From contig JBBRRY010000016.1 of NCBI GenBank assembly GCA_038245905.1, positions 4,955-68,954 on the forward strand: 64,000 bases of DNA. Direction: 5' to 3'. Made by a program: the position numbers and the translations under genes. This document shows positions 45,416-60,616 of this stretch, one piece after another. Below the pieces are notes generated by a model. That model was not told the DNA's origin, searched no databases, and saw only the letters and a list, made by a program, of their open reading frames with translations. This DNA is from Thermoanaerobaculia bacterium (GTDB lineage: Bacteria > Acidobacteriota > Thermoanaerobaculia > UBA5066). How positions within the stretch are numbered: position 1 is the first letter of the stretch; each line of letters starts with the position of its first letter.

Positions 45416-46738
45416 ATGGACGTGGCCCCTTTTTTCCAGTCGGCCGAAAAGAGCGATGCGGGTCTTTCGGCGCTCGCCCGCGGTGTCGTCGGCTCGGAGA
45501 TTCTCCGTATCGCCGGCGAGATCCGCGCGATGCAGGCAAAAGGCCGGCCCGTGTGCAACCTGACGATCGGCGATTTCGATCCGAAGCACTTCCCGATTCC
45601 GCAGCGTCTCCTCGACGGCACACGCGCGGCTCTCGAGACCGGGCAGACGAATTACCCGCCGGCGGAGGGCATCCTGCCGCTTCGTGAAGCCGTCGTGCGC
45701 TTGTACGAGCGGGATCTCGGACTGACGTATCCCGTCGACTCCGTCGTCATCGCGGCCGGAGCCCGTCCGCTTCTCTACGGAGCGTACCGGACGCTCGTGG
45801 ATCCAGGCGACACGACGATTTATCCCGTCCCGACCTGGAACAACAACCACTATGCCTATCTGTCGGGCGCGCACGGGATCGCCGTGCCCGTGACGAAAGA
45901 ATCGAACTTTTTCCCGACGCCTGACCAGCTGCATCCCCACCTCTCCTCGGCGCGGCTCCTCATCCTCAACTCGCCGCTCAACCCAACCGGTACCGTCATC
46001 TCCCGAAGCGCCCTCACCGCGATCACGGAAATGGTCGTGGAGGAGAACCGGCGGCGCGAGAAGGTGGGCGGCAAGCCGCTCTACTTTGTATACGACCAGG
46101 TCTACTGGACTCTCACGTTCGGCGGGGCCGAGCACCACACGCCTGTCGAGGTCGTGAGGGAGAGCGCCCCGTACGTGATCTTTCTCGACGCGATCTCGAA
46201 GGCTTTTTGCGCGACCGGGATGCGCGTCGGCTGGGGTGTCATGCCACCCGCCATTCGCAAGCGCATGTCCGACATCCTCGGGCACATCGGCGCCTGGGCG
46301 CCGAAGGCGGAGCAGGTGGGTGTCGCGGCCCTCCTCGACGACCCTGAGGCTGTCGGCGCGCATCGCGAGTCCGTGCGTCGGAAGCTCGCCGAGCGGCTCG
46401 AGGCCCTCTACGCCGGCGTCATGGCGATGAAGAAGGACGGCTTTCCGGTCGACGCGATCGAGCCGCAGGGGGCTATTTACCTCTCGGCGCGGTTCGACCT
46501 CTTCGGACGGACCGTGAAGGGCGCCCTCGTTCGGACGAACGAGGACGTCCGGCGCCTTCTCCTCGAGGAGGCGGGGCTAGGCGTCGTGCCTTTCGGGGCC
46601 TTCGGCTTCGCGGGCGACACCGGCTGGTTCCGCCTGTCGGTGGGCGCGGTTTCGATGGGCGACATCGCCAATGTCTTTCCGCGGCTGCGGGCCCTTCTCG
46701 CTCAGGCTCCGGCGGTCCGGGCGTCCGCCGTGCGCTGA
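45416..46738 (+). CDS. PLP-dependent aminotransferase class I/II (aspartate/aromatic aminotransferase-like)
   Basis: The fold-type I pattern is present, with the PLP-lysine motif SKAFCATGMRVGW and NYPPAEG. Length is 440 aa. Confidence 0.8.
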   Translation: MDVAPFFQSAEKSDAGLSALARGVVGSEILRIAGEIRAMQAKGRPVCNLTIGDFDPKHFPIPQRLLDGTRAALETGQTNYPPAEGILPLREAVVRLYERDLGLTYPVDSVVIAAGARPLLYGAYRTLVDPGDTTIYPVPTWNNNHYAYLSGAHGIAVPVTKESNFFPTPDQLHPHLSSARLLILNSPLNPTGTVISRSALTAITEMVVEENRRREKVGGKPLYFVYDQVYWTLTFGGAEHHTPVEVVRESAPYVIFLDAISKAFCATGMRVGWGVMPPAIRKRMSDILGHIGAWAPKAEQVGVAALLDDPEAVGAHRESVRRKLAERLEALYAGVMAMKKDGFPVDAIEPQGAIYLSARFDLFGRTVKGALVRTNEDVRRLLLEEAGLGVVPFGAFGFAGDTGWFRLSVGAVSMGDIANVFPRLRALLAQAPAVRASAVR

Positions 46739-46761
46739 CTGGCGGCGCTACACTCCCTTCT

Positions 46762-47433
46762 GTGAAGCAGGACAAGAGGTCGGAGAAGAGCCGGACGGCG
46801 ATTCTCGAAGCGTCGCTTGAGCTGTTCTCGAGCCAGGGCTATCGCGGCACGAGCATCCGCGAGATCGCAGAAGCGGCCGGCGTCTCGACGGGAAACGTCT
46901 ACCACCATTTCCCCGACAAGGAGACGATCTTCCAGACCGTCCTCGGCCAGTACTGGAAGGCGATCCAGAGCCCGGATCTCCCCTTCAACAAGGCGCTCGC
47001 CTCGGGCACGTTTCCCGACAACCTCGAAGAGCTCGCCGCCGCTGCGCGCGAGAGCGTGAGGCTCTGGCGGCGCCACATCGCCCTCATCTACGTCGACGTC
47101 GTCGAACTCTCCGGCAACCACATCCGGAACTTCTACTCGGAGATGGCCTCGCGCTTCGAGAAGTTCATCGTGACGCACGGCGATGTGGTCTCGGGCGAGA
47201 TCCGCCCCGGTGTCCCGGTCACGACCGCGGTCATCCTCGCGAGCCGCGTCTTCCTTCAGTACTACGCGGTCGAGATCCTTTTCGGCGTCCCGGAGCAGTT
47301 CGGCAAGAACAGCGACGTCGTCGTGGGCGAGATCGCGGAGATCCTCCGGTACGGGATGCTGAAGGAGCACGGACTCGCGGCGGCGGCAGCGACGCTGCCG
47401 TCGCTCGCCAGGGCCCGGCGCCAGGCCTCTTAG
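46762..47433 (+). CDS. TetR/AcrR-family transcriptional regulator
   Basis: The N-terminal HTH RTAILEASLELFSSQGYRGTSIREIAEAAGVSTGNVYHHFPDKETIF is present. It converges on the end of the lipid operon, with the stops overlapping by 4 nt. Confidence 0.85.
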   Translation: MKQDKRSEKSRTAILEASLELFSSQGYRGTSIREIAEAAGVSTGNVYHHFPDKETIFQTVLGQYWKAIQSPDLPFNKALASGTFPDNLEELAAAARESVRLWRRHIALIYVDVVELSGNHIRNFYSEMASRFEKFIVTHGDVVSGEIRPGVPVTTAVILASRVFLQYYAVEILFGVPEQFGKNSDVVVGEIAEILRYGMLKEHGLAAAAATLPSLARARRQAS

Positions 47434-48299
47434 GCTCCCCGCTCGCCGCCCAGGAAGCGCCTCAGCAGCGGCCAGTAGACCTCGGGCTTCTCGAGGTAGA
47501 CGACGTGGCCTGCGCCCGCGATCTCCTCGTATCGAGCGTGCGGGATCACGGACAGGATCTTCCGCTGCTGCGCCGGTGGAATCGTGCGGTCCTCGGCGCC
47601 TGCGAGAACGAGGACGGGGCACGGGATCGCGGCGAAGCTTGCCGCCTTCTCCTCGAGCGCCGCGAAGAACGGGTCCTGCGCCTCCGTGAGACGCACGAGC
47701 GCTTCGATGCGGCCGACGTAACGGTCGTGGAAGCCCTTGCGCATCGTTTCGAGCTTCTCGCCCACGCGCGCGACGAACTCCTCGCCGAAGATCTTCTCGT
47801 AGAGGTACCGCGTGTAGAGGTCGAAGAGCGGCTGGCCGCCCGCGTAGAAGCGCAGCGAGAGGTCCTGGTACATCGAGAAGAGCGTCTCTTTCGTCAGGAG
47901 GATTCCCGAGAGCGCCAGCGTGCGGACGCGCGCCGGGTGGCGCCGGGCGAACTCGGCCGCGACGAACCCTCCATACGAGACGCCGACCGCGTGCACGTTC
48001 GCGATCCCGGCCGCATCGAGGATCCCAGCAAGCGCGTCGCCGAAGACGGAGATCGGAGCGTCCGGCAGCGCCGCGTCGTCCGAAGCGCCCTGTCCCAGGT
48101 AGTCGTATAGGAGGACGTCGTGGTCCCCCGTCAGCTCGGGGAGAAACGAGATCCAGCTCTTCGTGGACATCGCGAGGCCGTTGAAGAGACAGACGGTCTC
48201 CCGCGCCCCCGTGCCCCAAAGCTCCCAGTAGTAGCCATGGCCCGCGTGGACCAGCCAGCCCTCCCGGAGCGGCGCAGAGGCGGGCGGGGTTGCGTTCAT
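47430..48299 (-). CDS. Alpha/beta-hydrolase fold protein (1)
   Basis: The nucleophile elbow HAVGVSYGGFVA (GxSxG), HG-like LFNGLAMS and C-terminal AGHVVYLEKPE (catalytic His region) are present. The ATG at 48297-48299 overlaps the next gene (ATGA). Confidence 0.8.
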   Translation of the reverse strand: MNATPPASAPLREGWLVHAGHGYYWELWGTGARETVCLFNGLAMSTKSWISFLPELTGDHDVLLYDYLGQGASDDAALPDAPISVFGDALAGILDAAGIANVHAVGVSYGGFVAAEFARRHPARVRTLALSGILLTKETLFSMYQDLSLRFYAGGQPLFDLYTRYLYEKIFGEEFVARVGEKLETMRKGFHDRYVGRIEALVRLTEAQDPFFAALEEKAASFAAIPCPVLVLAGAEDRTIPPAQQRKILSVIPHARYEEIAGAGHVVYLEKPEVYWPLLRRFLGGERGA

Positions 48300-49099
48300 G
48301 CGGCCCCCGCGGCGCGGCGCACGCGCTCGAGGAAGCGCTCGGCGAGGAGGACGAACTCGTCTTCCCTCTCGACGATCAGCGCGTGACCCGCGCCCTGCAC
48401 GACGACGAGACTCGCGCCGGGAATCGCGACCGCGACGGCCTCGGTCCGCTCGAGAGGCATTGCGGCGTCCCGGCCCGCGGCGACGACGAGAACCGGGCAG
48501 GCGATCTTCGGGAGAACGGGCCTGAGGTCGACCTTCGTGAGCGCCCCAAGGAGGCCCTCGAGGCCCGTAAACCAGGCCTCCGGCAGGAGACCAACCTGGG
48601 CACGCCGGGCCGCGATCTCCTCGGCGTGCGCGGTCTGCCACTCGGGTGTGTAGGCGAGATGCACGATCGCGTCGTAAACGGCCGTTCGGTCGCCGCCCTT
48701 CGAGACGGCGCGGACGGCGTGTGCGAGCCGCATGCCAGCCTCGCCGAGCCCCTCGTGCGCCACGTCCGTGACGGTCACCGCGAGAACGGACCCGACGAGC
48801 TCCGGATGGCGTGCCGCGAGGAGGAGTCCGACGTAGGCGCCGTAAGACGCCGCGACAACGTCGACTCGCGCTTCTCCCAGCGAGTCGAGGAGAGCCGCGA
48901 CGTCGTCCGCGTGCTCTTCCATGGAGGCGCGCGGCGGCCCCGGCGAGAGAAGCTGGCCTCTGAAGTCGCAGCGGATGACGTGGTGCCGCGCCGCGAGACG
49001 CCGCGCGACCGGCTCCCACGCGGAGAGCGACATCATCCCGCCGTTGAGGAGTAACAGCGGCGGACCCTCGCCGTCGACGCGGTGGGTCAGCATGCTCAT
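48296..49099 (-). CDS. Alpha/beta-hydrolase fold protein (2)
   Basis: LLLNGGMMS, VVAASYGAYVG (AxSxG elbow) and GAGHALIVE are present. The start and the upstream stop form a TGATG junction. Confidence 0.8.
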   Translation of the reverse strand: MSMLTHRVDGEGPPLLLLNGGMMSLSAWEPVARRLAARHHVIRCDFRGQLLSPGPPRASMEEHADDVAALLDSLGEARVDVVAASYGAYVGLLLAARHPELVGSVLAVTVTDVAHEGLGEAGMRLAHAVRAVSKGGDRTAVYDAIVHLAYTPEWQTAHAEEIAARRAQVGLLPEAWFTGLEGLLGALTKVDLRPVLPKIACPVLVVAAGRDAAMPLERTEAVAVAIPGASLVVVQGAGHALIVEREDEFVLLAERFLERVRRAAGAA

Positions 49100-50676
49100 C
49101 AGGAAGAAGAAGATTTCTTTGAAAGGTAAAGAGAGCGGAGGTCGCCCTTCACCACTTTGCCGTATGCGGTGCGCGGCAGGGCGTCGACGAAGAGGAATTC
49201 GCGCGGAACCTTATACTTCGCGAGGCGCCGCTCGACGAACGCCGCCAGTTCGGCCTTCTCTTCCTCTTCCCCTCTTACCTTCAAAGAAATCTTCTCTTCT
49301 CTTGCTCTCTCTCTTCGAACGACGAACGCCACCCCGACCTCGCCCCACTTCGCGTCCGGGACGCCGACGACCGCGACGTCCTTCACGCCCGGGTGCTGGA
49401 AGAGCACGCCTTCGATCTCTGCCGGATACACGTTGACACCGCCCGAGATGAGCATGTCTTTCTTGCGGCCGGCGATCGTGAAGAAGCCGTCGGCGTCCTT
49501 CTTCGCGAGATCGCCCGTGTGGAACCAGCCGTCCTCGTCGAGCGCGGCGGCCGTCGCGTCGGCGTTGCGGTAGTAGCCCGCACAGACGTGCGGCCCGCGC
49601 AGCAGCAGCTCGCCGATTTCGCCCACCGGCACCTCGCCTCCGTCCTCGCCGACGAGGCGCGCCCGGGTGAACATCATCGGTCGCCCGATCGATCCGGCCT
49701 TCCGGACGGAGTCCTCGAGGCTCATCGCGAAGCAGTTCACGCCGACCTCCGTGAGGCCGTAGCCCTGCTTGAAGTTCGCGCCGCGTTTGTGCCACGTCTC
49801 GATGATGTCCAGGGGAAGCGGCGCGCCCCCGCTGACGAAGTAGCGGACGCTCGAGAAATCCGCGGACGAGAACGCCGGGTGCTCCTGCAGCATCCGAAAG
49901 ATCGTCGGGACGCCGAGGACGACCGTACAGCGCTCTCTTGCGATCGCGGCGAAGATCTCCTCAGGGTCGAACCCGGCGAAGAGGACGATCGTCCCGCCCA
50001 CCGCGAGGATCGGCGTGAGGAACGCCCCGAGGCCGCCGGCGTGGTAGAGCGGCGTATAGATGGGCGACACGTCGTCCTCGCGCAGCTGCCACGAGACGAC
50101 CGTGTTCACCGCGTTCCACGCGACCATCCGGTGCGGCACCATCACACCCTTCGGCTTGCCCGTGGTGCCGGAGGTGTAGAGGAGGCAGTAGAGATCCTCC
50201 GGATCGGGAGAAGAGAAGATTTCCTTGAAGGTGGTGCGAGCGGCCGGCGCGCCCCCGGGCACCGCACGATGCGGCGCCAGAGCGTCGAGAGGCACGGCCC
50301 TCACCCCTGGACACCTTCTAAGAAGATCTTCAACGGTCTCGTCGAACGTCGCCCCGAAAATCAGCGCCCGCGGCTCGGCGTCCGAAACCACACTCTCCAG
50401 CTCCCCCGCCGTCTGCCGCGTGTTGAGCGGGACAAAAACGACACCGCTCTTGCCGCAAGCAAAGAAGACGTCCAGGAACTCGACGCAGTTGCCCGCGAGG
50501 AGAGCCAGGCGGTCGCCCTTCTTGAGGCCGAGGCCTTCCGTGAGGGTACGCGCGGCCGCCTGCGCCCGGGCGTCCAGCTCGGCGTACGTGAACCTGCGCC
50601 CGGTCGAGATTTCGACGAGTGCTGTCTTCTCCGGCGAGAGCCGCGCGCGCTCGCCGAGTATGTCGCCCCTGATCAT
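49099..50676 (-). CDS. AMP-dependent synthetase/ligase (acyl-CoA synthetase family, OleC/FadD-like)
   Basis: The AMP-binding motif LLYTSGTTGKPKGV, YGLTE, the GEIGELLLRGPHVCAGYY region and a C-terminal lysine-containing tail are present. The ATG at 50674-50676 overlaps the upstream hydrolase stop (ATGA). Confidence 0.85.
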   Translation of the reverse strand: MIRGDILGERARLSPEKTALVEISTGRRFTYAELDARAQAAARTLTEGLGLKKGDRLALLAGNCVEFLDVFFACGKSGVVFVPLNTRQTAGELESVVSDAEPRALIFGATFDETVEDLLRRCPGVRAVPLDALAPHRAVPGGAPAARTTFKEIFSSPDPEDLYCLLYTSGTTGKPKGVMVPHRMVAWNAVNTVVSWQLREDDVSPIYTPLYHAGGLGAFLTPILAVGGTIVLFAGFDPEEIFAAIARERCTVVLGVPTIFRMLQEHPAFSSADFSSVRYFVSGGAPLPLDIIETWHKRGANFKQGYGLTEVGVNCFAMSLEDSVRKAGSIGRPMMFTRARLVGEDGGEVPVGEIGELLLRGPHVCAGYYRNADATAAALDEDGWFHTGDLAKKDADGFFTIAGRKKDMLISGGVNVYPAEIEGVLFQHPGVKDVAVVGVPDAKWGEVGVAFVVRRERAREEKISLKVRGEEEEKAELAAFVERRLAKYKVPREFLFVDALPRTAYGKVVKGDLRSLYLSKKSSSS

Positions 50677-51641
50677 GGCCGGATGACCGCCGCAGGGGCC
50701 GGCGCGACAACCGGCGGCGACGAAACCGTCGGAGCCGGAAGTGGGTCGACAAGGACCTTCATGAGCGCCTCGGCGAAGCGGTCGGCGCACTCGACCTGCG
50801 GGGCATGGCCGCAGCGCTCGATCGTCGTGAGCCGTGCAGCGGGAAGTTGCGCGGCGAGGCGGCGGGCGTAGTCGACGGAAACCATTCTGTCCGACGCACC
50901 CCAGAGGAGATCCGCGGGAACGTCGAAGCCGCCGAGCTTTCCGTCAAGGAGGTAGGCGATCAGGTTCTTCGGCTCCACCGCGAGACGGGCGATCGGACCA
51001 GTCGCCGCGACACGGATGATGTCGTCGACGACGAAGTCGGGGATCATCGGGGCCGACGGATCGCGCAGCGCGGCAAGCGTCCGGTCCGCCTCGGCGCGCG
51101 TCTTCGGCTGGAGCGTGAGGTCAGGCCGGTCGCCGAGGAGCGGGCCGCCGTTCACGAGGACGAGGTGCTGGACCCTCTCGGGATGCTCCTTCGCCCACAC
51201 CGTCGCGACCCACGCGCCGAGCGAGTTTCCGACGAGCGTGACCTTGCCCTGCGGGAGCTCCTTCATGGCGCCGTCGAAGCCCGCGAGGAGCGTCGCGAAC
51301 GGAATCGGTCCGGCGGCCGGCGCGCTGTCTCCGTGCCCCGCGAGGTCCGGGATGACGACGAGGAAGCTTTTCGCGACTCGCGGCGCGACTTTCGCCCAGC
51401 CGCCGGCCTGGTCGCCGGCACCATGGACGAGGACCACGGGCGCGCCGCGGCCTCCGGAGAACACGCGCTGCGGCCCCACGGCCGATGTCTGAAAATGCTT
51501 CTCGAAGCCGGAAAAGGAGAGCCGGCGGCGGCCGAGCCACGCGAGCGTGGCGAGGGGCCTCTTCCAGAAGATCGCCCCCGCCGCCACTCCGAGAAGGAGG
51601 AGAGCGGCGGCGAGGACGAGGACGATCTTCACCGGGCGCCG
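50673..51641 (-). CDS. Alpha/beta-hydrolase fold protein (3) with an N-terminal TM/signal segment
   Basis: VVLVHGAGD, LVGNSLGAWVA (GxSxG) and ERCGHAPQVE (His) are present. The N-terminal hydrophobic segment is KIVLVLAAALLLLGVAAGAIFW. Confidence 0.75.
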   Translation of the reverse strand, partial: RRPVKIVLVLAAALLLLGVAAGAIFWKRPLATLAWLGRRRLSFSGFEKHFQTSAVGPQRVFSGGRGAPVVLVHGAGDQAGGWAKVAPRVAKSFLVVIPDLAGHGDSAPAAGPIPFATLLAGFDGAMKELPQGKVTLVGNSLGAWVATVWAKEHPERVQHLVLVNGGPLLGDRPDLTLQPKTRAEADRTLAALRDPSAPMIPDFVVDDIIRVAATGPIARLAVEPKNLIAYLLDGKLGGFDVPADLLWGASDRMVSVDYARRLAAQLPAARLTTIERCGHAPQVECADRFAEALMKVLVDPLPAPTVSSPPVVAPAPAAVIRP

Positions 51642-51657
51642 CACGGTGCCCCGGAGC

Positions 51658-52653
51658 CTAGACCATCCGGAAGGCGGCGCCCGCCATGTTGTAGCCGACG
51701 CCGGACGCCACGAAGACGACGAGGTCACCGGTCTTGATCTTGCCGAGGGCGCGAGCGTCGTCGAGCGCCATTGCGACGCTCGCCGAGCCGGTATAGCCCC
51801 ATTTCTCCATGACCATGTGGGTCTTTTCCATGGGAAGCCCGAGGTCCTGCATGACGAGCTCGATCGTCGGCTTGCGCACCTGCGTCAGGAGGAGCATGTC
51901 GATGTCGGAGACCGCGAAGCCCCCGTCGGCCGCCATCTGCCGCACGAGCTTCGGCCATCCTTCGTTGTTGAGCTCGGGCGGATAGCGTTCGATCATCTTC
52001 ACGGTCGTGCGGCCGGCCTTGAAGGACTCGTCGGTCACCGGCTCGGCCGTTCCGCCCGAGTGGATCGCCCAGTGCCCGTAATAGGACCCGTCCGCGCGGA
52101 AGCCCGAGGCGACGAAGCCGGGCTTCTCCGACGGCTCGAGCACCGCGGCGCCTGCGCCGTCCCCGAAGAAGAAGATCATCGGGTCGTTCGGGTCCGTGAG
52201 CTTGTGCATCATGTAGGCGCCGACCGCGACGACCGTCTTGAGGGACTTGTTCGTCGCGATGAGGCCTGCGGCCGTCGCAAGGCACGTCGGGAAGGACGCG
52301 CACGCGCAGCCGATGTCGAACGTCCCGGCGTTCTTCGCGCCGAGCTTGTGCTGGACGACGACGGACGTCGCAGGGGTCACGAAGTCCGGCGAGTCCGTGC
52401 CGAGGAGGATGAGGTCCACGTCCTCCGGCTTCTTCCCGGCAGCGTCGAGAGCCTTCCGCGCCGCGCGGACAGCGAGGTCCGACGTCGCCCAGTCGGGCGG
52501 CGCGTACCAGCGGGTCCTGATCCCGCTGCCCGCCTCCATCTTGTCGACGAACTCGGGAGCGGTCGCCTTGAAGCGCTCGCGGAGCGCGTCGTTCGACACC
52601 TCGATCTCCGGCACGTACGAGCCGGTGGAGACGATCCGGGCCGAGCGGCTCAT
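51658..52653 (-). CDS. 3-oxoacyl-ACP synthase III (FabH/KAS III)-like condensing enzyme (thiolase fold; OleA/DarB-like candidates)
   Basis: IVSTGSYVPE, DLILLGTDSPDFVTPA and the nucleophile region TFDIGCACASFPTCLATAAG are present, with a C-terminal GDLVVFVASGVGYNMAGAAFRM. Length is 331 aa. By eye I could not place the canonical His/Asn of FabH with confidence. Confidence 0.75.
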   Translation of the reverse strand: MSRSARIVSTGSYVPEIEVSNDALRERFKATAPEFVDKMEAGSGIRTRWYAPPDWATSDLAVRAARKALDAAGKKPEDVDLILLGTDSPDFVTPATSVVVQHKLGAKNAGTFDIGCACASFPTCLATAAGLIATNKSLKTVVAVGAYMMHKLTDPNDPMIFFFGDGAGAAVLEPSEKPGFVASGFRADGSYYGHWAIHSGGTAEPVTDESFKAGRTTVKMIERYPPELNNEGWPKLVRQMAADGGFAVSDIDMLLLTQVRKPTIELVMQDLGLPMEKTHMVMEKWGYTGSASVAMALDDARALGKIKTGDLVVFVASGVGYNMAGAAFRMV

Positions 52654-53414
52654 GTCCCGAGCACCAGCCCGCCGTCGACCGAGAGCGTTGCCCCGTGGAC
52701 GAACGAGGCCGCGTCGGAAGCGAGCCAGAAATACGCCTCGGCGATGTCCTCGGGCTTCCCCATCCGCCCGACGGGCGTCTTCGCGACCATCCCCGCGATC
52801 ACCTTCTCGGGTATCGCCTTGATGATCTCCGTCGCGACGAAGCCCGGCGCGACCGCGTTGACGCGGATGCCGAACTTCCCGAGCTCACGGGCCCACGTCT
52901 GGGTGAACGAGATGACGCCGGCTTTCGTGGCCGCGTAGTTCGTCTGGCCGAAGTTGCCATAGAGACCGACGACGGAGGACGCGTTCAGGACGACGCCGCT
53001 CCCCTGCTTGATCATCTGCGGGGCGGCGGCTCGCGTGCAGTTGAAGACGCCCCTGAGGTTGACGGCGATCACCTTGTCGAAGTCGGCGTCCGGCATCGTC
53101 GAGACGACGGCACCGTCCTTCCACTTGACGAGCTGGGAGTCGCGGACGATCCCGGCGTTGTTGACGAGAACGTCGACGCGGCCGAAGCGGGCGACGACCT
53201 CTTGGACGGCCTTCTCCACCGCCGCGGAGTCCGTGACGTCCACCTTTCGTCCCTCGGCGTCGAGCGCGCCCGCCGCCTTGAGCTCCGGGGCGAGCGCGGC
53301 GGCTCCCGCCTCGTCCACGTCCCAGGCGGACACGGTGCAGCCGCCCCGAGCGAAGCGAAGGGCCGTGGCGCGGCCGATGCCGGCCGCACCTCCCGTCACG
53401 ATGGCGACGCGCAT
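52650..53414 (-). CDS. Short-chain dehydrogenase/reductase (FabG-like 3-oxoacyl reductase)
   Basis: TGGAAGIGRA (TGxxxGIG), NNAG and YAATKAG (YxxxK) are present. Length is 254 aa. It overlaps the KAS III-like start (ATGA). Confidence 0.85.
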   Translation of the reverse strand: MRVAIVTGGAAGIGRATALRFARGGCTVSAWDVDEAGAAALAPELKAAGALDAEGRKVDVTDSAAVEKAVQEVVARFGRVDVLVNNAGIVRDSQLVKWKDGAVVSTMPDADFDKVIAVNLRGVFNCTRAAAPQMIKQGSGVVLNASSVVGLYGNFGQTNYAATKAGVISFTQTWARELGKFGIRVNAVAPGFVATEIIKAIPEKVIAGMVAKTPVGRMGKPEDIAEAYFWLASDAASFVHGATLSVDGGLVLGT

Positions 53415-53416
53415 CG

Positions 53417-56203
53417 TCAGAACGTGACCTTGACGCCCATCTGGAATTCGCGCGACGGGAGCGTCGCCGAGTAGTTGCCGTAGTTCGAGTTCGCCTTGTA
53501 CAGGGCCGCCGGGTTCGCGATCGTCGGGCCCGCGGTGAACTCGGCGTTGTCGATCGACGTGACGTCGTAGTTGACCGTGTTGAAGAGGTTGAACGCCTCG
53601 GCGAGGATCTCGAACCCGAAGCCCGAGAAGTTGAACGCCTTCGAGACGCGGAGGTTCAAGCTGCTGTAGCGGGGGCCGTCCTGGCCGAAGCGATCGACGC
53701 CGTCGAGACGGTCGCCCGTCTTGCCGTCACCGTTGTAGTCGTAGCCGCGGCGCTGGGTCCAGGGTTGTCCGCTGCCGTACTCGAAGACGGGCGCGACCGA
53801 GATCTGCCACGGGAGCCGGGCGACGCCCGAGACGACGATCCGCATGCGCTCAGTCGAGCGGGCGCGGCCGTATTCGGCGTCCATGTTCGCCGGGTCGCTC
53901 GGATAGCCCGTCGGGAACTCGGGGCTGAAGTCGTCGTTGATGTTGTGCTTGCTCGCGAACGTCACGGAAGCGGAGACGACATGTCCGCCCCGGATGTTGC
54001 CGTTCAGCGCGAAGACGACCGCCTTGTACTCCGAGCGGCCGTCGTTCGTGTACTCGTTGACCTGGTCGTACGCCGTGATCGGACGCGTATGCGTGGCGTT
54101 GCCGCTCCAGTTCACGTCGCGGATCGCGATCTCATTGCGCCCCTTCATGTAGACGCCCTCGACGTCGAGAAACAGTCCCGTCGACCCGAGCTTCGAGGTG
54201 AGGCCGAGTGTCGCCTGGGTGGACTGCGGGGCCTTGAGCTCCGGCGCGAGGAGTCCGATCGCGGGCTTGGACCTGATCCCGGTGTTTTGCGGGTTGTTCG
54301 GATCGAGCGTAAATTGCGGGAAACCGAGGAGTGCTCCGTTCGCGTTCGTGTACGTGATGCGGCCCGTGATGCCGTTCTGCTGGAGCTCCGAGAAGAGCGG
54401 CACCATCAGATAGCGGCCCGTGAAAAGACCGACGCCGCCGCGCGCGACAAACGCGCCCTTACCGTTGATGTCGTATGAGAAGCCAAGGCGTGGCTGGATG
54501 TTCGTCGAGTCGACCTTGCGGCCGTCGATCCCGAGAACCGGCTGCTTGAAGTCGGGGTCGTTGCCGTTCGTGTCGAGGTCGTACCGGACGCCGAGGCTGA
54601 TCGAGAGGTTGGTGATGGGGCGCCAGTCGTCCTGGACGAAGGCCCCGATCCGGTTCGTGTTCGCCGTCACGTCCGCCGAGCCGACGCCGTAGAGGTAGGC
54701 GTAGAGGAAAGCCTTCGTGTCCGTGAGGTAGTAGAAAAGCCCGGGCGAATACACGTCGATCACCGAACGGTCCACGACGCGCTGGAAGGCCGCGCCGATC
54801 TTGACGTCGTGCGTGCCCGCCTTTCCGCCGAAGTGGAGGTTCAGCGTGTCGCGAAGCTCCCACTGATTCCCATCGCCGAGGAGGTCGCCGTAGAGGCTCC
54901 CTCCCGTCTGAAGCGTGGTCCCGCCCGTGTACCACTCGGTGGGCGCCGTCGAGTTCGGCGGCTCGTCGTACTTGCGCTTTCCATACTGCGCACGGAGCTC
55001 GTTGACCGTGTTCGAGCCGAAAACCGCCGTGTCCCCGACCGTGACGTTCAGGTTGTCGCGATTGAGCTCCTGGCCGTTCGTGACGTCCGCGACGCCGCCG
55101 ACCCGGAAGTTGTTCTCACGGTAGCGGTCGTACTCGACCTTCGCCGTGAGCTGATTCGACTCCGTGAAGGACTGGTCGAGTCCGCCGTAAACGAGCGTCT
55201 GATGGAACGGGTGCTTGACGTCCGCCGCGAGCGGCTTGAAGGCGCCCTGCGGCCGGAAGAGGATTGGAGTCGTGGAGTTGATCTGCTCGAAGGACGCGAA
55301 GAAGTGCGTCCTGTCCTTGACGATCGGGCCGCCCACGGTGAAGCCAAACTGGTCGCGCTCGTAGCTGATGGTCGTGTCCTGCTCGAGAGCGCCCTTGGCG
55401 CGCAGCGCATCGCCGCGGTAGAAGCCGAAGAGCGAGCCCGCAAACGTGTTCGTGCCGGACTTCGTCAGGATCGAAAGCGCGCCGCCCGACGAGCCGCCGA
55501 TTTCGGCGTCGAAGCGGTTGTTGATGACGCGGAACTCCGAGATCGCGTCCTGCGAGAACTTCGTCTTCGCGAGGCCAAGCGCCGGGTCCGTGAAGTCGAC
55601 ACCGTCCACGAGAATCGTCGACTGGCTCGCGTTCCCGCCGCCCCCGATTACCGGACCGCCCGAGACGAACCGGAAGGCGCCGCGCTCGCGCTCGACGCCG
55701 GGCGCTACGAATGCGAGCCTCTGGAAGTCGCGGTCCGGCGTGGGGAGGTCCTGGATCTGCTGCGGCGTGATGTTCGTCGAGGAATCTGTCTTGTAGACGT
55801 CCACGAGCGGGGCCGACGCGACAACGCTGATGCTCTCGCTCCGCTTGCCCTGAAGCGTCGCATTCACGCGCGCGCTCTGACCGACGAGGAGGACGACGCC
55901 CTTCTGCTCGACGGTCTCGAAGCCCTGGAGCTTCACCGAAACGTCGTACGTGCCGGGCGGAAGCGCCGCAAACGATGCGAGGCCTCCCGCGCCGGTGACT
56001 CCCGTGCGGGAGAAGCCCGTCGACGGGCGCTTCAAGTCGACGGTCACGCCGGGAAGCGGCCCGCCGTTCCCGTCCAGGGCCACGACGTCGAGCGACGCCG
56101 TCGCCGTCTGTGCGACGGCAGGGAGCGACGCGAGCGTTAGAACCATTACGGCGGCGAGCGCGAGCCACCCGTGCGCCATCGCGAACCTCATGCGATTCAC
56201 CAT
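53417..56203 (-). CDS. TonB-dependent receptor-like outer-membrane protein with an N-terminal carboxypeptidase-regulatory-like (CarbopepD) domain
   Basis: The ATG at 56201-56203 gives MVNRMRFAMAHGWLALAAVMVLTLASLPAVAQ (signal peptide). VTVDLKRPSTGFSRTGVTGAGGLASFAALPPGTYDVSVKLQGFE is a CarbopepD_reg-like fold. A plug and a long beta-barrel follow, ending ...QMGVKVTF with a C-terminal Phe. Length is 928 aa. No obvious TonB-box was recognised by eye. Confidence 0.75.
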   Translation of the reverse strand: MVNRMRFAMAHGWLALAAVMVLTLASLPAVAQTATASLDVVALDGNGGPLPGVTVDLKRPSTGFSRTGVTGAGGLASFAALPPGTYDVSVKLQGFETVEQKGVVLLVGQSARVNATLQGKRSESISVVASAPLVDVYKTDSSTNITPQQIQDLPTPDRDFQRLAFVAPGVERERGAFRFVSGGPVIGGGGNASQSTILVDGVDFTDPALGLAKTKFSQDAISEFRVINNRFDAEIGGSSGGALSILTKSGTNTFAGSLFGFYRGDALRAKGALEQDTTISYERDQFGFTVGGPIVKDRTHFFASFEQINSTTPILFRPQGAFKPLAADVKHPFHQTLVYGGLDQSFTESNQLTAKVEYDRYRENNFRVGGVADVTNGQELNRDNLNVTVGDTAVFGSNTVNELRAQYGKRKYDEPPNSTAPTEWYTGGTTLQTGGSLYGDLLGDGNQWELRDTLNLHFGGKAGTHDVKIGAAFQRVVDRSVIDVYSPGLFYYLTDTKAFLYAYLYGVGSADVTANTNRIGAFVQDDWRPITNLSISLGVRYDLDTNGNDPDFKQPVLGIDGRKVDSTNIQPRLGFSYDINGKGAFVARGGVGLFTGRYLMVPLFSELQQNGITGRITYTNANGALLGFPQFTLDPNNPQNTGIRSKPAIGLLAPELKAPQSTQATLGLTSKLGSTGLFLDVEGVYMKGRNEIAIRDVNWSGNATHTRPITAYDQVNEYTNDGRSEYKAVVFALNGNIRGGHVVSASVTFASKHNINDDFSPEFPTGYPSDPANMDAEYGRARSTERMRIVVSGVARLPWQISVAPVFEYGSGQPWTQRRGYDYNGDGKTGDRLDGVDRFGQDGPRYSSLNLRVSKAFNFSGFGFEILAEAFNLFNTVNYDVTSIDNAEFTAGPTIANPAALYKANSNYGNYSATLPSREFQMGVKVTF

Positions 56204-56337
56204 CTCATCCTCCTGATGCCGCGCGGGCGGCCAAATCCCGAACACTCGGTATGTTTTGACGATACGAGCGAAGAAAGCGGGCTGTCAAGCCGAAACTACC
56301 CGGTCGCCTCCGAATGACAGCCCTCAGGGGAAGGCCT

Positions 56338-58200
56338 CTAGCGGCGCTCCCGGGCCCGCAACCGTCCCCGGTTTGCCAGCTTCTCGGTGAGCTGCAGGTT
56401 CCGCCGGATCTGCTCGAGCATCTTGGCCTCGAGGCCGCGACCCGCCGACACGCGCGTGTCACGCCTTTTGGCGCGGCCGAAGGCCTGGCGCGCGGCGCGC
56501 GCGTCCCCCAGCGCGAGGTACGCGAGGCCGAGGTGCGTGAGTCCCGTGGGCGTCTCGCCCAGGTCCGTGGCGCGGCGCAGGCACTCGACCGCACGATCGT
56601 ATTCGCGGCGCTTGTAGTGGACCCAACCCTTGGCGGCGAGAGGAAACTGGCGCATCTCCTTCGGCGAGAGCTTGAGCGAGAGATCGGCGAGCTCGAGGGC
56701 CGCGTCGAGGTCCTCCCCCATCTCCGCGAGAGTCGACGCCCTCTGAAAATAGGCGATCGAGCGCGCGTAGTTGGACTTCACGACGCCGAGCATCTCCTCG
56801 GCGACGCGGCTGCCTTCGCGAAATTTCCCCTCTGCCTTCAGGGCCTCGAGGAGCGTCGTGTACGCCGCCGCCGCGACCATCTCGCCCGGCGCGCGGGAGA
56901 GGACCCGGCGTGTCGTGGCGACCGCTTCCGACGTCCGGCCGACGGCCGAGCACAGGAGCGCGTACGCGATGAGAAGCGTCGGGTTCTCCGGGTCGAGCTT
57001 CAGCGCGCGCCGATACAGCGCCATCGCCTTCTGCGGATCGCGCGGCGCGGCCGTCTCCGCTTTCCGCGCGAGCACGGCCGCCTCGCCGACGACCTTCGGG
57101 AGCGCACGCGCGCCCGAGGGCGCGAGCAGCTTCGACGCCTCCTGGTATTCGATACGGTTGGGGTTCAGCTCGAGCGCCGCCTGGAACCGCTCGGCCGCCT
57201 TCTGCGTCCATCCGCGGTCGAGATAGCAGATGCCGAGCTGATAGAGGGCGTCCTCGTCGTCGGGATCGAGGCGCGCGGCCTTTTGAAAAGCCTCCGTGGC
57301 TTCCGTGAGGCGGCCGCGCTCGTACGCGATCGTGCCGAGGAGCGAGTACGCCTGCGCGTTCTCGTCGATCGCGACGGCCTTCTTGAGGAACGTCTCCGCC
57401 CTGGCGAGCTGCCCCTTGAGCGCAAAGAGCGCGCCGAGCGTGAAATAGGGCAGAAACGCGTCCGGCTTGACCGCGACCGCTTCCTTGAGAACCTCGAGCG
57501 CGTGGTCGGTGCGGCCGGCTTCGTTCTCGAGGACACCCGTGTACACGAGCGCGTCGAAGTGCTTCGGCTCCTTCGCGAGAACCGCCCGCAGCATCGAGGC
57601 GGCGCGATCCGTCTCGCCCTCGTTGAAATACGTCTCGCCGAGGAAGAACGCGAGATCGGCGTTCCCCCTGTCGAGCCGGTAGGCCTCCTCGAGCACCTTG
57701 ACCGCCTTGTCCGGGTCGAGCGCGTAGAACGCGAACTCCGCATCGGAGAGGAGTCCCTTGAAGCGCTCCCGCCGCTCTCCCGAAAAGCCGCCGAGCATCC
57801 TCTCCTTGCGCTCGAGGAAACGTTCGCGCTTCTCCATCGCGGTCATGTGATGGTCGACGCGCGTCTCCCAGAGGTCGAGCAGCTCTTCCTCGACGAGAAG
57901 CCCCTTTCGCTCGAGCAGGTCCTTGAGGGCAAGCAGCCCCGTCTGGGCGACGAAGCCGTTCTTCTCCTGCCGATTCAGGGCTTCGAGCAGCATCTTGAGG
58001 GTCTCGGCGCTTCGCTTGACGATCTCCTCGAGGACGCTGACGCGCTCGAGAAGGTGCTCGTCCATCGAGACGCCCTCTTCCTGCTGCGTGCCCTCTTCGT
58101 ACGCTTCAGAGGCTCCCGAGACGACGAGAAGCTTGCTCTGGCACTTGATGCAGTATTCACGCTCGAGCTCGTTCGAGGCCCCGCAGACCTGGCAGATCAC
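56338..58200 (-). CDS. Zinc-ribbon plus TPR-repeat protein
   Basis: The N-terminus [21 protein letters not shown] is a CxxC...CxxC zinc ribbon. At least 10 TPR-like repeats follow (for example [29 protein letters not shown]). Confidence 0.75.
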
Positions 58201-59081
58201 GAGAGCCTCTCGCCTCCCGGGCCGTCATAGCGGTAGAAACCGCGCCCCGTCTTCCGGCCGTGCCAGCCCGCGTCGACCATCTGAACGAGGAGGGGGCAGG
58301 GGCGGTACTTGTCGTCACCGAGGCCCCCGTGAAGGACCCGCAGGATCGCGAGGCACGTGTCGAGGCCGATGAAGTCGGCGAGCGTCAGCGGTCCCATCGG
58401 ATGGTTCATGCCGAGCTTCATGATCCCGTCCACAGCGTCCGGCGTCGCGACGCCCTCGTGGACCGCGAAGAACGCCTCGTTCAGCATCGGGAGGAGGATC
58501 CGGTTCGAGATGAAGCCGGGGAAGTCGCGGCACGTGAGAGCGGTCTTTCCCATCTCGCGGGCGAGAGCGAGGATGGTGTCCGTCGTCTCGTCCGACGTCG
58601 CGATGCCGCGAATCACCTCGACGAGCGCCATGACGGGCACGGGGTTCATGAAGTGCATCCCGATGAAACGGTCGGGTCTCTTCGTGCCCGCCGCGAGCCG
58701 CGTGATCGAAATCGACGACGTATTCGTGGCGAGAATCGTCGCGGGCGGGACGAGCGCGTCGAGACGCGCGAACAGGTCCTTCTTGACGGCTTCATTCTCG
58801 AGGATGGCCTCGACGACGAGGCCGGCGTCGGCCAGCCGTCCGAGATCGGCCGTCGCGGTGACGCGCGCGAGCGCCGCGTCGCGATCGTCAGGACCGACCT
58901 TGCCTTTCTCGACCTGACGCGCAAGGTTCTTCTCGATCGTCTTCAGGCCCTTTCCCGCGAGGTCGGGGGTCACGTCGACGAGCACGACTCTCTTCCCGGC
59001 GAGCGCCGCGACGTGCGCGATGCCCGCTCCCATCTGTCCGGCGCCCACGACGCCAATCGTTGCCGGTGTCATCGAGTCCAC
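58197..59081 (-). CDS. 3-hydroxyacyl-CoA (3-hydroxybutyryl-CoA) dehydrogenase
   Basis: The Rossmann motif [14 protein letters not shown] and the FHB-dehydrogenase blocks [15 protein letters not shown] and HPMGPL are present. It overlaps the TPR gene stop (ATGA). Confidence 0.85.
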
Positions 59082-59123: not shown

Positions 59124-60056
59124 TCAGGAGGCGGCGAGCACGAGGCGCGGCTCGCGAGAGACAGCGGCGTCGAGCGCCACTCCGATCCCGGCGAGAGACG
59201 AGAGTCCCCAGAGGAGCGGGCCGAGGACCGGAAGGAGAGACAGCAGCCCGAGGAGAAGAACGCCGGCCGCGAGCGCCGTCGGATCGCCGAACAGGAGGCT
59301 TCCGCGCGGAGCGCCCCTCGTGATCCGCCGCCCGAGCGCGACGAAAACGACCGTGAGGCCGAAGATCTTGGCGGCCACGAGCGCTGCGAGAAGAATGGCG
59401 CCCACGGCGAGCGCGGGCCGGGCCGGGAGGATGGACAGCGCGAAGGCCACGGAAAAGAACGCGGTCAGGATCGCGGTCGCGCCGAGCGCAGCCAGGAACG
59501 CGAGGCGGCTCGGAACATCGTCCGCGGCCCGGAGGAGCCGGCGGGGCGCGAGAAAGAGGAGACCGAAGGAGACCACGAGCCAGGCGAAGAGGAGGAAGAG
59601 CCTAAGCGAAAGGACCAGAGTCGAGGACTTGCCACGTGTCAGCGGCGAGGTTTCGAGCTCAGACAGGACCGCCGCCTCGAGCGCCGAGATCGTGCGGACA
59701 CGTCCGCGCACCTGCGGGTGGCCGTCGGAATTTTCTTCGAAGGTGAGGGAACCGCCAACCGCCAGCACGTCCCCGTCGATGACGGCGCCACGGAGGATCG
59801 TCGCGTCCGCGCCAAGGAGAACGAGATCGCGGCGAATGCGGCCCGACACAGTCGCGTGGGCTGCTCCGACGAGAACCGCGCTCCCTCCCAATTCTCCTTC
59901 CAAGAAAATCCTCTTCCCGAGAACCACGAGATCCCCGGAACGGGTCGTTCCCTTCGGAATGAGAATGGAGGCCTCTTCCGCGCGCGCAGATTGGGCGACC
60001 ATCAGAAGCAGAATGAATATCGCCCGATTACCCCGCGTGCGAATCCAGCGGTTCAT
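59124..60056 (-). CDS. Bactofilin-like (polymer-forming, beta-helical) domain fused to a C-terminal polytopic membrane region
   Basis: The signal/TM segment MNRWIRTRGNRAIFILLLMVAQSARA is followed by the repetitive beta-helix pattern GDLVVLGKRIFLEGELGGSAVLVGAAHATVSGRIRRDLVLLGADATILRGAVIDGDVLAVGGSL, and then 4-5 TM helices. Confidence 0.55.
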   Translation of the reverse strand: MNRWIRTRGNRAIFILLLMVAQSARAEEASILIPKGTTRSGDLVVLGKRIFLEGELGGSAVLVGAAHATVSGRIRRDLVLLGADATILRGAVIDGDVLAVGGSLTFEENSDGHPQVRGRVRTISALEAAVLSELETSPLTRGKSSTLVLSLRLFLLFAWLVVSFGLLFLAPRRLLRAADDVPSRLAFLAALGATAILTAFFSVAFALSILPARPALAVGAILLAALVAAKIFGLTVVFVALGRRITRGAPRGSLLFGDPTALAAGVLLLGLLSLLPVLGPLLWGLSSLAGIGVALDAAVSREPRLVLAAS

Positions 60057-60069
60057 CGGGGAGCCCGCG

Positions 60070-60606
60070 TCAGCCGCGGGGCGTGCCCGCGACGGCGCGC
60101 GCGAGACGCGACGGACGCCGGGACAGCCGCCGTGCCAGGATGGCAAACGTGGCGCCCGAGGCGAGAAGGGCGCCCGCAAGAGCCGCGCGGGCGCCCGGCG
60201 TGCCGGACAGCACTGCCCCGAGGGCGTCGGCGAGGGTGGGGATCGCAGCGAGCAGCGCAGGCAGCCCGGCCGTCGTGCCAGCCGCCATGACCCGCGCCCA
60301 CATCTCGAGAGCCGTCTGGGGTCCGAGCGACCAGAGAGGGGCGAGAAAGACGACCAAGCTGGCCGTCAGGAGTCCTCCGGCCGCCAGCGCAGGCGCCCTC
60401 CAGGCTCGAGCGCGACGGACCTCCCAGGGGGCAAAGGGGCGATGGGCCATTACCCGGGCGGTCAAGTCGGCCTCCCAGCCAGGTGCAGGAGAAGCCATAA
60501 CACATTCATCCAGAATGGTTTCCAGGCGACGATCCAGCTCCAGCTCCTCCATCGAAGTCGGATTAACGTCCGGGACGTCAGGGACGTGGGTGGCGCTATC
60601 GTTCAT
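60070..60606 (-). CDS. Putative anti-sigma factor (single-pass membrane protein)
   Basis: It sits immediately downstream of the ECF sigma gene (10-nt gap). It has a cytoplasmic helical N-domain MNDSATHVPDVPDVNPTSMEELELDRRLETILDEC, one TM helix (ALAAGGLLTASLVVFLAPLW) and a periplasmic tail. The call rests on position and topology only. Confidence 0.5.
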   Translation of the reverse strand: MNDSATHVPDVPDVNPTSMEELELDRRLETILDECVMASPAPGWEADLTARVMAHRPFAPWEVRRARAWRAPALAAGGLLTASLVVFLAPLWSLGPQTALEMWARVMAAGTTAGLPALLAAIPTLADALGAVLSGTPGARAALAGALLASGATFAILARRLSRRPSRLARAVAGTPRG

Positions 60607-60616
60607 CCTGACCCCT

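Follow-up and report, generated by a model that had tools for sequence, protein, structure and literature searches.

In FabH of Escherichia coli, a ketoacyl-acyl carrier protein (ACP) synthase III (KAS III), malonyl decarboxylation depends on the active-site His and Asn, whereas the Cys is acylated without them. OleA, the thiolase-fold enzyme of the OleABCD olefin pathway, keeps the Cys together with His285 and Asn315, plus Glu117; its partners include OleB, a haloalkane-dehalogenase-like alpha/beta-hydrolase with an Asp nucleophile, and OleD, an extended short-chain dehydrogenase/reductase (SDR) of the 3beta-HSD type with about 330 aa. OleBC fusions occur in actinobacteria. In ChlB6, CerJ, DpsC and PqsBC, Cys or Ser is used in acyl transfer. 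The Cys-His-Asn triad is a stated hallmark of KAS III, including the acyl-coenzyme A (CoA) shunt enzymes PA3286 and FabW, KAS III homologues that use CoA esters from exogenous or degraded fatty acids (PMC4549310). ChlB3 is a KAS III-like protein with an altered triad, which carries out acyl transfer and not decarboxylative condensation (PMC9573744); for OleA, work cited in PMC7064751 describes His285 and Glu117 as important. Here we compare with these systems a seven-gene operon on the minus strand of a 64,000-nucleotide stretch (the window; contig JBBRRY010000016.1, positions 4,955 to 68,954) from a Thermoanaerobaculia bacterium of the Acidobacteriota. The operon encodes a TonB-dependent receptor-like protein, an SDR, a KAS III-like protein, a predicted acyl-CoA ligase and three alpha/beta-hydrolases (ABH1, ABH2 and ABH3). 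What is unusual is the KAS III-like protein: it belongs to a large cross-phylum clade of FabH-fold proteins with Cys-Thr-Tyr (C-T-Y) at the triad positions, encoded inside a conserved module of five to seven genes. At a rough probability of 0.5, we read the block as a TetR-controlled module for the uptake and CoA-dependent catabolism (or salvage) of an ester-linked organic acid.

Relatives of the KAS III-like protein with 86-94% identity were found in metagenomes and in metagenome-assembled genomes (MAGs) of Thermoanaerobaculia. Residues were aligned with FabH structures and, separately, mapped with MAFFT, taking C112, H244 and N274 of E. coli FabH as the reference triad. Cys118 was kept, FabH His244 was replaced by Thr257 and Asn274 by Tyr287; the original prediction had left it to be checked whether Cys-His-Asn (C-H-N) is retained, and the answer is Cys-Thr-Tyr. 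Arg36, Arg151 and Arg249 of FabH were not conserved either. Among 218 full-length homologues from two database searches, 136 carried C-T-Y and 76 carried C-H-N. At the level of loci the split was clean: all 31 clade loci checked were C-T-Y and 55 of 55 ordinary fabH loci were C-H-N. L001-L029 and L057 read C-T-(Q)-Y, with L030-L084 otherwise C-H-(Q)-N. The locus L085 from Bdellovibrio bacteriovorus (KAS-like protein P0284, 10001-11005), which was fetched as a relative of the L026 C-T-Y protein, groups with the C-T-Y loci. The residues C118, T257, Q258, G286, Y287 and G289 were invariant in 20 clade members down to 31% identity, and the clade showed motifs of its own (TDTPD, YPPxxNxxxWP, FTQVN/R and GYTGSAC). 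An inactive scaffold was judged unlikely in view of this invariance of Cys118, Thr257, Tyr287 and several Gly-rich loops.

The window protein fell below every NCBIfam FabH cut-off (208.6 bits versus 249 for NF006829; 181.4 versus 292.1 for TIGR00747, fabH) and reached 67 bits with the HMG-CoA synthase model (cut-off 244). An AlphaFold (AF2) model of the C-T-Y protein, with a pLDDT (confidence score) of 93.7, had FabH 4DFE as its best fold match in a Foldseek search of the PDB (TM 0.91, 31% identity); this search returned solely canonical FabH, BioZ and PqsD, and no solved structure of the clade. The clade thus shares with FabH the fold, the Pfam domains, the nucleophilic Cys loop, and the DGAGA and Gly-rich loops, but differs in the Thr/Tyr pair, in the loss of the three Arg residues and in a pantetheine-tunnel motif remodelled to YPPxxNxxxWP. 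Because the His and Asn needed for malonyl decarboxylation are replaced and the Cys is kept, the C-T-Y enzyme would form an acyl-enzyme on Cys118 without carrying out decarboxylative condensation.

The genomic setting differs as well. Pfam annotation of the block and its flanks revealed no fabD, acpP or fabF, and the partners of the C-T-Y gene are a ligase, hydrolases and importers instead of fab genes. In many C-H-N loci the KAS gene is followed at about 2 kb by a FabG homologue, which corresponds to the usual fabH-fabD-fabG spacing, whereas C-T-Y loci lack it. A housekeeping FabH or FadD was therefore ruled out by triad, curated cut-offs and gene context; the original prediction had named an ordinary FabH or FadD next to acpP or fabD as the finding that would speak against it, and no such arrangement was present.

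A few observations concern individual clade members. The near-invariant Cys of the GYTGSAC motif (residue 292) is Ser in the window protein, in L001, L005 and Bdellovibrio, and is kept in almost all remaining members. Two Caldiserica MAGs each encode two tandem C-T-Y-type KAS paralogues (L023, 9002-10978; L024, 1022-2998) with 36% and 41-42% identity to the window protein, and by analogy with PqsB/PqsC these might form a heterodimer. Five apparent KAS fusions of the representative set were discarded: P0123, P0126, P0131 and P0189 look from their sequences like frameshift or assembly chimeras, and P0166 belongs to the C-H-N enzymes and has an unrelated extension at its N-terminus.

The distribution of the module was examined in a scan with a single genome for each species and then by tblastn searches with the window proteins and clustering of neighbours within 10 kb. 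The resulting clusters comprised KAS at 28 loci, ligase at 19, SDR at 17, ABH2-type hydrolases at 11, receptor at 10 and TetR at seven. At least 12 acidobacterial loci had a receptor orthologue inside the block. Module carriers were Acidobacteriota, Chloroflexota, B. bacteriovorus, Bacteroidota and KSB1, and the arrangements were as follows (optional genes in brackets): (i) (TetR)-receptor-SDR-KAS-ABH-ligase-(thiolase)-(ABH-ABH)-(TetR) in Acidobacteriota (Thermoanaerobaculia, Vicinamibacterales, Holophagales and unclassified MAGs), with a minimal block receptor-SDR-KAS-ABH-ligase-TetR containing one hydrolase each in L087 and L088; (ii) ABH-ABH-SDR followed by a divergently transcribed KAS-ligase pair in B. 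bacteriovorus; (iii) receptor-KAS-ligase in Phaeodactylibacter luteus, where the receptor has a clear Plug domain (47 bits); (iv) SDR-KAS-sodium:solute symporter (SSF)-ligase-ABH-hypothetical-receptor in Chondrinema litorale; (v) SDR-KAS-SSF-ligase in a KSB1 MAG; and (vi) SDR-KAS-CoA-transferase-thiolase-DUF35-ABH plus a full ABC importer in Anaerolineae and on a plasmid of Chloroflexota strain ZRK35. Conservation in relatives, as envisaged in the original prediction, thus held for the gene set, which recurs, and failed for the gene order, which is shuffled. Since the same set recurs beside KAS orthologues in shuffled order and between unrelated flanks, the grouping goes beyond chance.

The transport genes varied between lineages. 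The Bacteroidota receptors (L025, with the clear Plug, and L090) are linked to the module independently, MFS transporters were found in three acidobacterial loci, and the ABC systems of the Chloroflexota loci have a binding protein of the Peripla_BP_6 type. Anaerolineae encode, in place of the ligase, an enzyme of the acetyl-CoA hydrolase/transferase family that is closest to butyryl-CoA:acetate CoA-transferase. The accompanying thiolase is of the SCP-x/PRK06064 type (451 bits, cut-off 420) and resembles archaeal acetoacetyl-CoA thiolase; the same type occurs in the acidobacterial loci L003, L007 and L086. By Pfam annotation, thiolase and DUF35 genes were absent from the window and from most loci, and the pair occurred only in the Anaerolineae and ZRK35 loci. 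A MaoC hydratase gene was present in a single Chloroflexi locus (L022). The ZRK35 module (L089, CP069395.1, 9185-20879) resides on a 180-kb plasmid of this cultured deep-sea strain.

Two gammaproteobacterial C-T-Y genes with 55-59% identity, from Aquisalimonas lutea (L015) and an Ectothiorhodospiraceae MAG (L016), had no SDR or ligase homologue within 10 kb, so the C-T-Y enzyme can occur outside the module. Genes nearby encode a pyruvate dehydrogenase E1 component and coproporphyrinogen oxidase, and L015 contains one weak ABH3-like match (25% identity).

The SDR gene is translationally coupled to the KAS gene. Its product matched adh_short and adh_short_C2 (1e-60 to 7e-65), scored only 25 bits with Epimerase and had no 3Beta_HSD match in Pfam, in agreement with the original prediction of a short, classical FabG-type enzyme (254 aa) as opposed to an extended, OleD-type one. 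It scored 271 bits with FabG TIGR01830 (cut-off 297.75) and 231 bits with acetoacetyl-CoA reductase, and it passed the NCBIfam FabG subfamily NF009466 (228.5 bits versus 222). Among solved structures 4NBW was closest (2e-92), followed by FabG, PhaB and acetoacetyl-CoA reductase types and the (3R)-hydroxyacyl-CoA dehydrogenase 2ET6. These matches indicate a classical enzyme of the 3-oxoacyl/(3R)-hydroxyacyl-thioester type. The protein contains TGGAAGIG and YAATK motifs. In classical SDRs an acidic residue after beta2 specifies NAD(H). Because Asp32 is located at the end of beta2 and the Gly motif has no basic residue, the cofactor signature is NAD(H)-type, which suggests that the enzyme works in the direction of oxidation.

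The ligase matched AMP-binding (5e-94, 315.7 bits) and AMP-binding_C (77.4 bits), and its ANL core is intact (YTSGTTGKPKG, GYGLTE, TGDL and the C-terminal GK). The nearest NCBIfam models were long-chain-fatty-acid-CoA ligase PRK06187 (450 bits, cut-off 476) and PRK06839; the closest solved relatives were 8WEU/8WEV (fatty-acyl/feruloyl-CoA synthetase, 3e-111) and FadD13. The protein is predicted to be an AMP-forming acyl-CoA ligase that narrowly misses the long-chain subfamily cut-off. Ligase and ABH2 form a single protein in L001, a relative with 81% identity (11982-14474; 830 aa with AMP-binding, AMP-binding_C and Abhydrolase_1), which suggests that the two act on consecutive steps.

A ligase, a KAS III-like enzyme and a FabG-like SDR are just the trio that a shunt into type II fatty acid synthesis requires: an imported acid would be converted to its CoA ester and serve as primer for condensation with malonyl-ACP by the FabH-like enzyme, with reduction by the SDR, as for PA3286 and FabW. 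The SDR score above the NF009466 cut-off fits such a salvage route, and so does the presence of the module in Bdellovibrio, which reuses prey lipids. We nevertheless regard it as quite unlikely. PA3286 and FabW are KAS III homologues like the window protein, but they keep Cys-His-Asn and condense with malonyl-ACP (PMC4549310), whereas C-H-N was never found in the clade, and the FabH Arg residues are lost. Neither acpP nor fabD nor any other fab gene was found in the block, unlike in the C-H-N loci with their downstream FabG, the CoA-transferase, thiolase and DUF35 partners point to degradation, and the SDR cofactor signature is of the NAD type.

The original prediction had preferred an OleABCD or beta-lactone assignment. 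Such a pathway would begin with head-to-head condensation of two acyl-CoAs by the FabH-like enzyme and reduction of the resulting 3-oxo compound by the SDR; the ligase would serve as beta-lactone synthetase, and decarboxylation or release by a hydrolase would give a lipid, beta-lactone or hydrocarbon. The operon does combine the four Ole superfamilies (thiolase-fold enzyme, SDR, ANL ligase and alpha/beta-hydrolase), the ligase-hydrolase fusion in L001 recalls the actinobacterial OleBC, and non-decarboxylative Claisen chemistry formally needs no malonyl decarboxylation. However, OleA has kept His and Asn at the positions occupied by Thr and Tyr in the window protein, and the OleA chains 3ROW, 3S21, 4KU5, 5VXD and 6B2S matched only partially (1e-16 to 1e-14, compared with 6e-46 for FabH). 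The SDR is a classical one of 254 aa, and all three hydrolases have a Ser nucleophile elbow, as opposed to the Asp of OleB; dehalogenase matches were partial (about 1e-9). The reading is thus not supported on three of the four components (OleA, OleB and OleD). As for the fourth, the exchange of the ligase for a CoA-transferase in Anaerolineae argues for a CoA-activating enzyme and not for a beta-lactone synthetase. Finally, Ole is a self-contained biosynthetic set, whereas SSF, ABC and TonB-dependent importers, TetR and extra thiolase/DUF35 genes accompany the module. We consider Ole-like biosynthesis improbable.

Likeness to Pqs and dialkylresorcinol systems, also suggested in the original prediction, did not hold up. 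The matches to PqsD (9e-31) and PqsC (1e-12) were weaker than that to FabH, and the DarB and StlD/DarB family models gave 37.1 bits (cut-off 550) and 40.9 bits (cut-off 450), respectively. Membership in the OleABCD, beta-lactone, Pqs and DarB systems was ruled out by active-site residues, family scores, SDR type and hydrolase nucleophile. ChlB3/ChlB6, CerJ, DpsC and PqsBC resemble the clade in combining a FabH fold with a non-canonical active site, but these enzymes keep a His (Cys/Ser-His-Asp or Cys-His), belong to antibiotic or quinolone clusters with an ACP or polyketide synthase (PKS), and are far more distant in sequence, whereas the clade has Thr and Tyr and a catabolic-type context. The archaeal thiolase/HMG-CoA synthase/DUF35 complex and PhlACB show the same trio of folds that is encoded in Anaerolineae and ZRK35 (C-T-Y protein, PRK06064-type thiolase and DUF35 OB-fold protein); in contrast to the archaeal complex, the C-T-Y protein is not an HMG-CoA synthase, and the window lacks thiolase and DUF35.

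The first hydrolase, ABH1 (Abhydrolase_1, 2e-26; serine motif GNSLG), starts with a hydrophobic signal or anchor segment (VRRPVKIVLVLAAALLLLGVAAGA). An N-terminal hydrophobic or signal segment was also found in orthologues from five loci of Acidobacteriota, the counterpart in Bdellovibrio starts with a classical signal peptide, and in L004, where no ABH1 homologue was detected, a Lipase_2 enzyme with a signal peptide adjoins the KAS gene. All diderm lineages examined thus had a KAS-adjacent hydrolase with a signal or anchor at its N-terminus, and ABH1 is predicted to be extracytoplasmic or membrane-anchored. ABH2 (2e-22; AASYG) and ABH3 (2e-27; GVSYG), both Abhydrolase_1 matches, have no visible signal peptide. 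Solved relatives are the esterases Est1 (6EB3) and 8V16, PcaD (2XUA) and TtEst (4UHC) for ABH2, and MGS-M2 (4Q3L) and Est1 (6EB3) for ABH3. Homologues of ABH3 with at least 50% identity lie within the block in L001, L005, L007 and L010. Both enzymes are predicted to be cytoplasmic and carboxylesterase-like, ABH3 being probably accessory to the module. The receptor has a signal peptide, and the two matches that represent the 22-strand barrel of TonB-dependent transporters both exceed their Pfam cut-offs (OMP_b-brl_4, 1e-65, 222.9 bits; TonB_dep_Rec_b-barrel, 4e-10, 40.7 bits); CarboxypepD_reg matched at 1e-15. We classify it as a putative TonB-dependent-receptor-like outer-membrane protein with a divergent plug.

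The best solved relative of ABH1 was PlaF (6I8W), the membrane-bound phospholipase A1 of Pseudomonas aeruginosa, with an alignment that begins at residue 12 and includes the N-terminal membrane segment preceding the hydrolase domain in both proteins. This resemblance raises the possibility of envelope remodelling similar to the Lands cycle, in which ABH1 would remove fatty acid from endogenous phospholipids. The ligase would then activate this acid again, and a lysolipid or other acceptor would receive it through the Cys-only FabH-like enzyme. Acyltransferases of the KAS III-like type with an altered triad are indeed known (e.g. ChlB3). The similarity to PlaF is remote, however (3e-18), and the genomic context is a different one; in L004 a Lipase_2 enzyme takes the place beside KAS. 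The receptor, the SSF and ABC importers, the CoA-transferase, the thiolase/DUF35 pair and the 3-oxoacyl-type SDR would all be left unexplained, and we consider remodelling of this kind very unlikely.

Uptake followed by CoA-dependent degradation is favoured for several reasons: (i) four classes of importer accompany the module, of which SSF and this type of ABC system work in import only, together with an extracytoplasmic esterase; (ii) the ligase is replaceable by a catabolic-type CoA-transferase; and (iii) thiolase, DUF35 and MaoC genes may be added, TetR is linked, and a single regulated promoter is present. The comparative evidence hence agrees with the second, catabolic reading in the original prediction, in which receptor, esterases and ligase act together. 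We infer the following direction of flux and enzyme roles. The receptor would carry the substrate through the outer membrane, and ABH1 would cut the ester bond outside the cytoplasm. The freed acid would enter the cell by diffusion or through an unlinked carrier (relatives have SSF, MFS or ABC systems), and the ligase would convert it to a CoA thioester. The FabG/PhaB-like, NAD-type SDR would then interconvert (3R)-hydroxyacyl-CoA and 3-oxoacyl-CoA. The C-T-Y enzyme would act on thioesters through an acyl-S-Cys118 intermediate, and two alternatives are conceivable for this step, retro-Claisen (thiolytic) cleavage of 3-oxoacyl-CoA or CoA-dependent transfer of an O-esterified acyl group. ABH2 and ABH3 would serve as accessory cytoplasmic esterases or thioesterases. 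Coupled to the SDR, the C-T-Y enzyme most plausibly makes or breaks a bond beside a 3-oxo group without decarboxylation, or moves an O-acyl group to CoA. Acylation of Cys118 by an oxygen ester would have a precedent, since OleA, another member of the thiolase superfamily, turns over p-nitrophenyl esters that acylate its Cys (PMC7064751).

We guess that the substrates are (R)-3-hydroxy acids in ester or oligomer form, such as polyhydroxyalkanoate (PHA) oligomers or 3-acyloxyacyl residues of bacterial lipids, and we give this guess about half the weight of the catabolic reading itself. It is based on the SDR type, the butyryl-type CoA-transferase, the esterases, a weak PHA-depolymerase similarity and the scavenging or predatory habit of the carriers.

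Several points weigh against this interpretation. Substrate and activities are guesses drawn from sequence. A plain 3-hydroxy-acid route consists of ligase, dehydrogenase and thiolase, which leaves the C-T-Y enzyme, the most conserved component, without a forced role; about six loci encode a separate thiolase, and the C-T-Y enzyme itself may not be one. Polarisation of a thioester carbonyl by Thr and Tyr is conceivable, and some condensation chemistry could persist. The KAS III and FabG families are classically biosynthetic, and MFS proteins also serve as exporters. The window operon lacks an inner-membrane importer, and the Plug match of its receptor is sub-threshold (19.8 bits versus 23.9), although it spans profile positions 7-100 of 107 and lies where a plug is expected (residues 140-236, approximately). 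Matches of the hydrolases to PHA-depolymerase models are weak and generic (50-105 bits, cut-off 300).

The same catabolic architecture could also serve an aromatic or other non-lipid acid ester, for instance hydroxycinnamate esters degraded by CoA-dependent, beta-oxidative shortening of the side chain. Feruloyl-CoA synthetase 8WEV (4.5e-111) is among the best solved relatives of the ligase, the Peripla_BP_6-type binding protein of the Chloroflexota and the resemblance of ABH2 and ABH3 to short-chain carboxylesterases fit this option, and thiolase plus DUF35 pairs typically take bulky 3-oxoacyl-CoAs such as benzoylsuccinyl-CoA (the BbsB model was matched). On the other hand, a hydratase is present at one locus only, the module is conserved in a predator, Bdellovibrio, the CoA-transferase is closest to the butyryl-CoA:acetate type and a Lipase_2 gene lies beside KAS in L004. 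Overall, an aromatic substrate appears unlikely.

We tentatively put forward, as a doubtful yet conceivable extension of the catabolic reading, that the C-T-Y proteins form a new functional class of thiolase-fold enzymes dedicated to CoA-dependent cleavage. They would perform O-ester thiolysis or retro-Claisen cleavage without the canonical His/Asn or Cys/His machinery, in an unrecognised recycling pathway for (R)-3-hydroxyacyl esters. This pathway would also comprise secreted esterases, a dehydrogenase specific for (3R) substrates and either a CoA ligase or a CoA-transferase, and would be fed by compounds such as PHA oligomers or 3-acyloxyacyl lipids of dead or preyed-on bacteria. If this is true, such recycling would be common among scavengers and predators (Acidobacteriota, Anaerolineae, Bdellovibrio and Bacteroidota).

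All families encoded by the operon are known, and TetR-controlled receptor/esterase/ligase operons are ordinary. Full-text literature searches (non-canonical KAS III, Bdellovibrio, acidobacterial receptor/KAS/ligase operons and PDB 8WEV) yielded no description of the clade or of the module in the sources searched, in line with the statement in the original prediction that the block matches no described system. All automated annotations seen for C-T-Y proteins were ketoacyl-ACP synthase III or 3-oxoacyl-ACP synthase; since these proteins lack two of the three residues that define KAS III activity, the names given to thousands of genes from predators and from bacteria of soil and sediment are probably wrong. 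Acidobacteriota are abundant and hard to culture. The clade spans at least six phyla in a CoA-thioester, esterase and importer context, and may mark undescribed carbon turnover in this phylum. The presence of the core module in B. bacteriovorus and in cultured Bacteroidota makes its function accessible to genetics and enzymology, and a Cys-Thr-Tyr active site would widen the catalytic repertoire known for the thiolase fold.

Table 1. Genes and putative regulatory elements of the operon region, in window coordinates.
Feature	Position	Strand	Pfam domains or sequence	Remarks
Sigma70-like promoter	56259-56288	-	TTGACA, 18-nt spacer, TATCGT	in the 134-bp gap upstream of the receptor gene
Candidate operator (25 nt)	56233-56257	-	AAAACATACCGAGTGTTCGGGATTT	directly after the -10 box; small palindrome CCGA-GTGT-TCGG
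TonB-dependent receptor-like protein	53417-56203	-	CarboxypepD_reg, OMP_b-brl_4, TonB_dep_Rec_b-barrel	928 aa
SDR	52650-53414	-	adh_short	254 aa
KAS III-like protein	51658-52653	-	ACP_syn_III, ACP_syn_III_C	331 aa
ABH1 alpha/beta-hydrolase	50673-51644	-	Abhydrolase	323 aa, GTG start
Acyl-CoA ligase (predicted)	49099-50676	-	AMP-binding, AMP-binding_C	525 aa
ABH2 alpha/beta-hydrolase	48296-49099	-	Abhydrolase	267 aa
ABH3 alpha/beta-hydrolase	47430-48299	-	Abhydrolase	289 aa
TetR regulator, convergent	46762-47433	+	TetR_N	223 aa

The seven genes form one real operon within a window of about 68% G+C. All seven open reading frames (ORFs) are in frame with one terminal stop each, and their Pfam domains agree with the families and the operon architecture given in the original prediction. 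The junctions, in order, are a 2-nt gap between receptor and SDR, an ATGA overlap between SDR and KAS, a 13-nt gap between KAS and ABH1, ATGA between ABH1 and ligase, TGATG (1-nt overlap) between ligase and ABH2, and ATGA between ABH2 and ABH3. Contrary to the earlier description, the two gaps do not flank the KAS gene on both sides; they separate receptor from SDR and KAS from ABH1. The start of ABH1 was likewise corrected: the codon at 51641, where it had been placed, is CGG, and the GTG at 51644 yields a protein similar in length to the 322-aa orthologue in L001. An ACP, a malonyl transferase, a dehydratase or an exporter was not detected in the block by Pfam annotation. The stop codons of TetR and ABH3 overlap by 4 nt.

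The promoter upstream of the receptor gene was the only sigma70-like match in the region 46500-56500, and the relatives L001 and L005 keep both its -35 and -10 boxes. Upstream of the ATG at 56203 there is a Shine-Dalgarno sequence, AGGAGG. L001 has exactly the same core of the 25-nt element that follows the -10 box, and L005 differs from it at a few positions, in both cases within diverging spacer DNA. Among the 90 loci fetched, the motif ACCGANTGTYCGG occurred only at this position in L001 and L005, the two closest relatives, and a family-wide operator could not be defined because the motif was absent from the others. We consider the element a probable TetR operator. The convergent regulator (TetR_N, 2e-18; 66.3 bits, cut-off 24) is predicted to repress the operon; in many acidobacterial loci the block likewise comes with a TetR gene, at varying positions.

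An inverted repeat with 22-nt arms (56279-56323, 73% complementary) lies immediately behind the stop codon of the TPR gene upstream and overlaps the -35 box of the operon promoter. It is not kept in L001 and could be a terminator hairpin of the upstream gene or a second regulatory site. Further upstream, on the minus strand (56338-59081 and 59124-61207), a gene for a 620-aa TPR protein and an overlapping gene for a 3-hydroxyacyl-CoA dehydrogenase (3HCDH) were found, followed by two ORFs without Pfam match and an ECF sigma factor. An extension of the operon into the TPR and 3HCDH genes was rejected: the two adjoin the module only in L001 and L005, and their homologues are paired without the module in a Pyrinomonadaceae MAG (L079), so they are not module members.

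Elsewhere in the window, the region 33803-38613 encodes a fatty-acid desaturase with a sphingolipid delta4-desaturase N-terminal domain (Lipid_DES) that adjoins a bacterial sugar transferase and two glycosyltransferases, which hints at sphingolipid-like or glycolipid metabolism in the host. An 869-aa protein (61248-63857) has a PPDK_N ATP-binding domain as its sole Pfam match. The segment 24001-30000, which includes the gene for a DUF748 protein (27632-29434), has a G+C content of 0.64-0.65, compared with 0.67-0.72 elsewhere.

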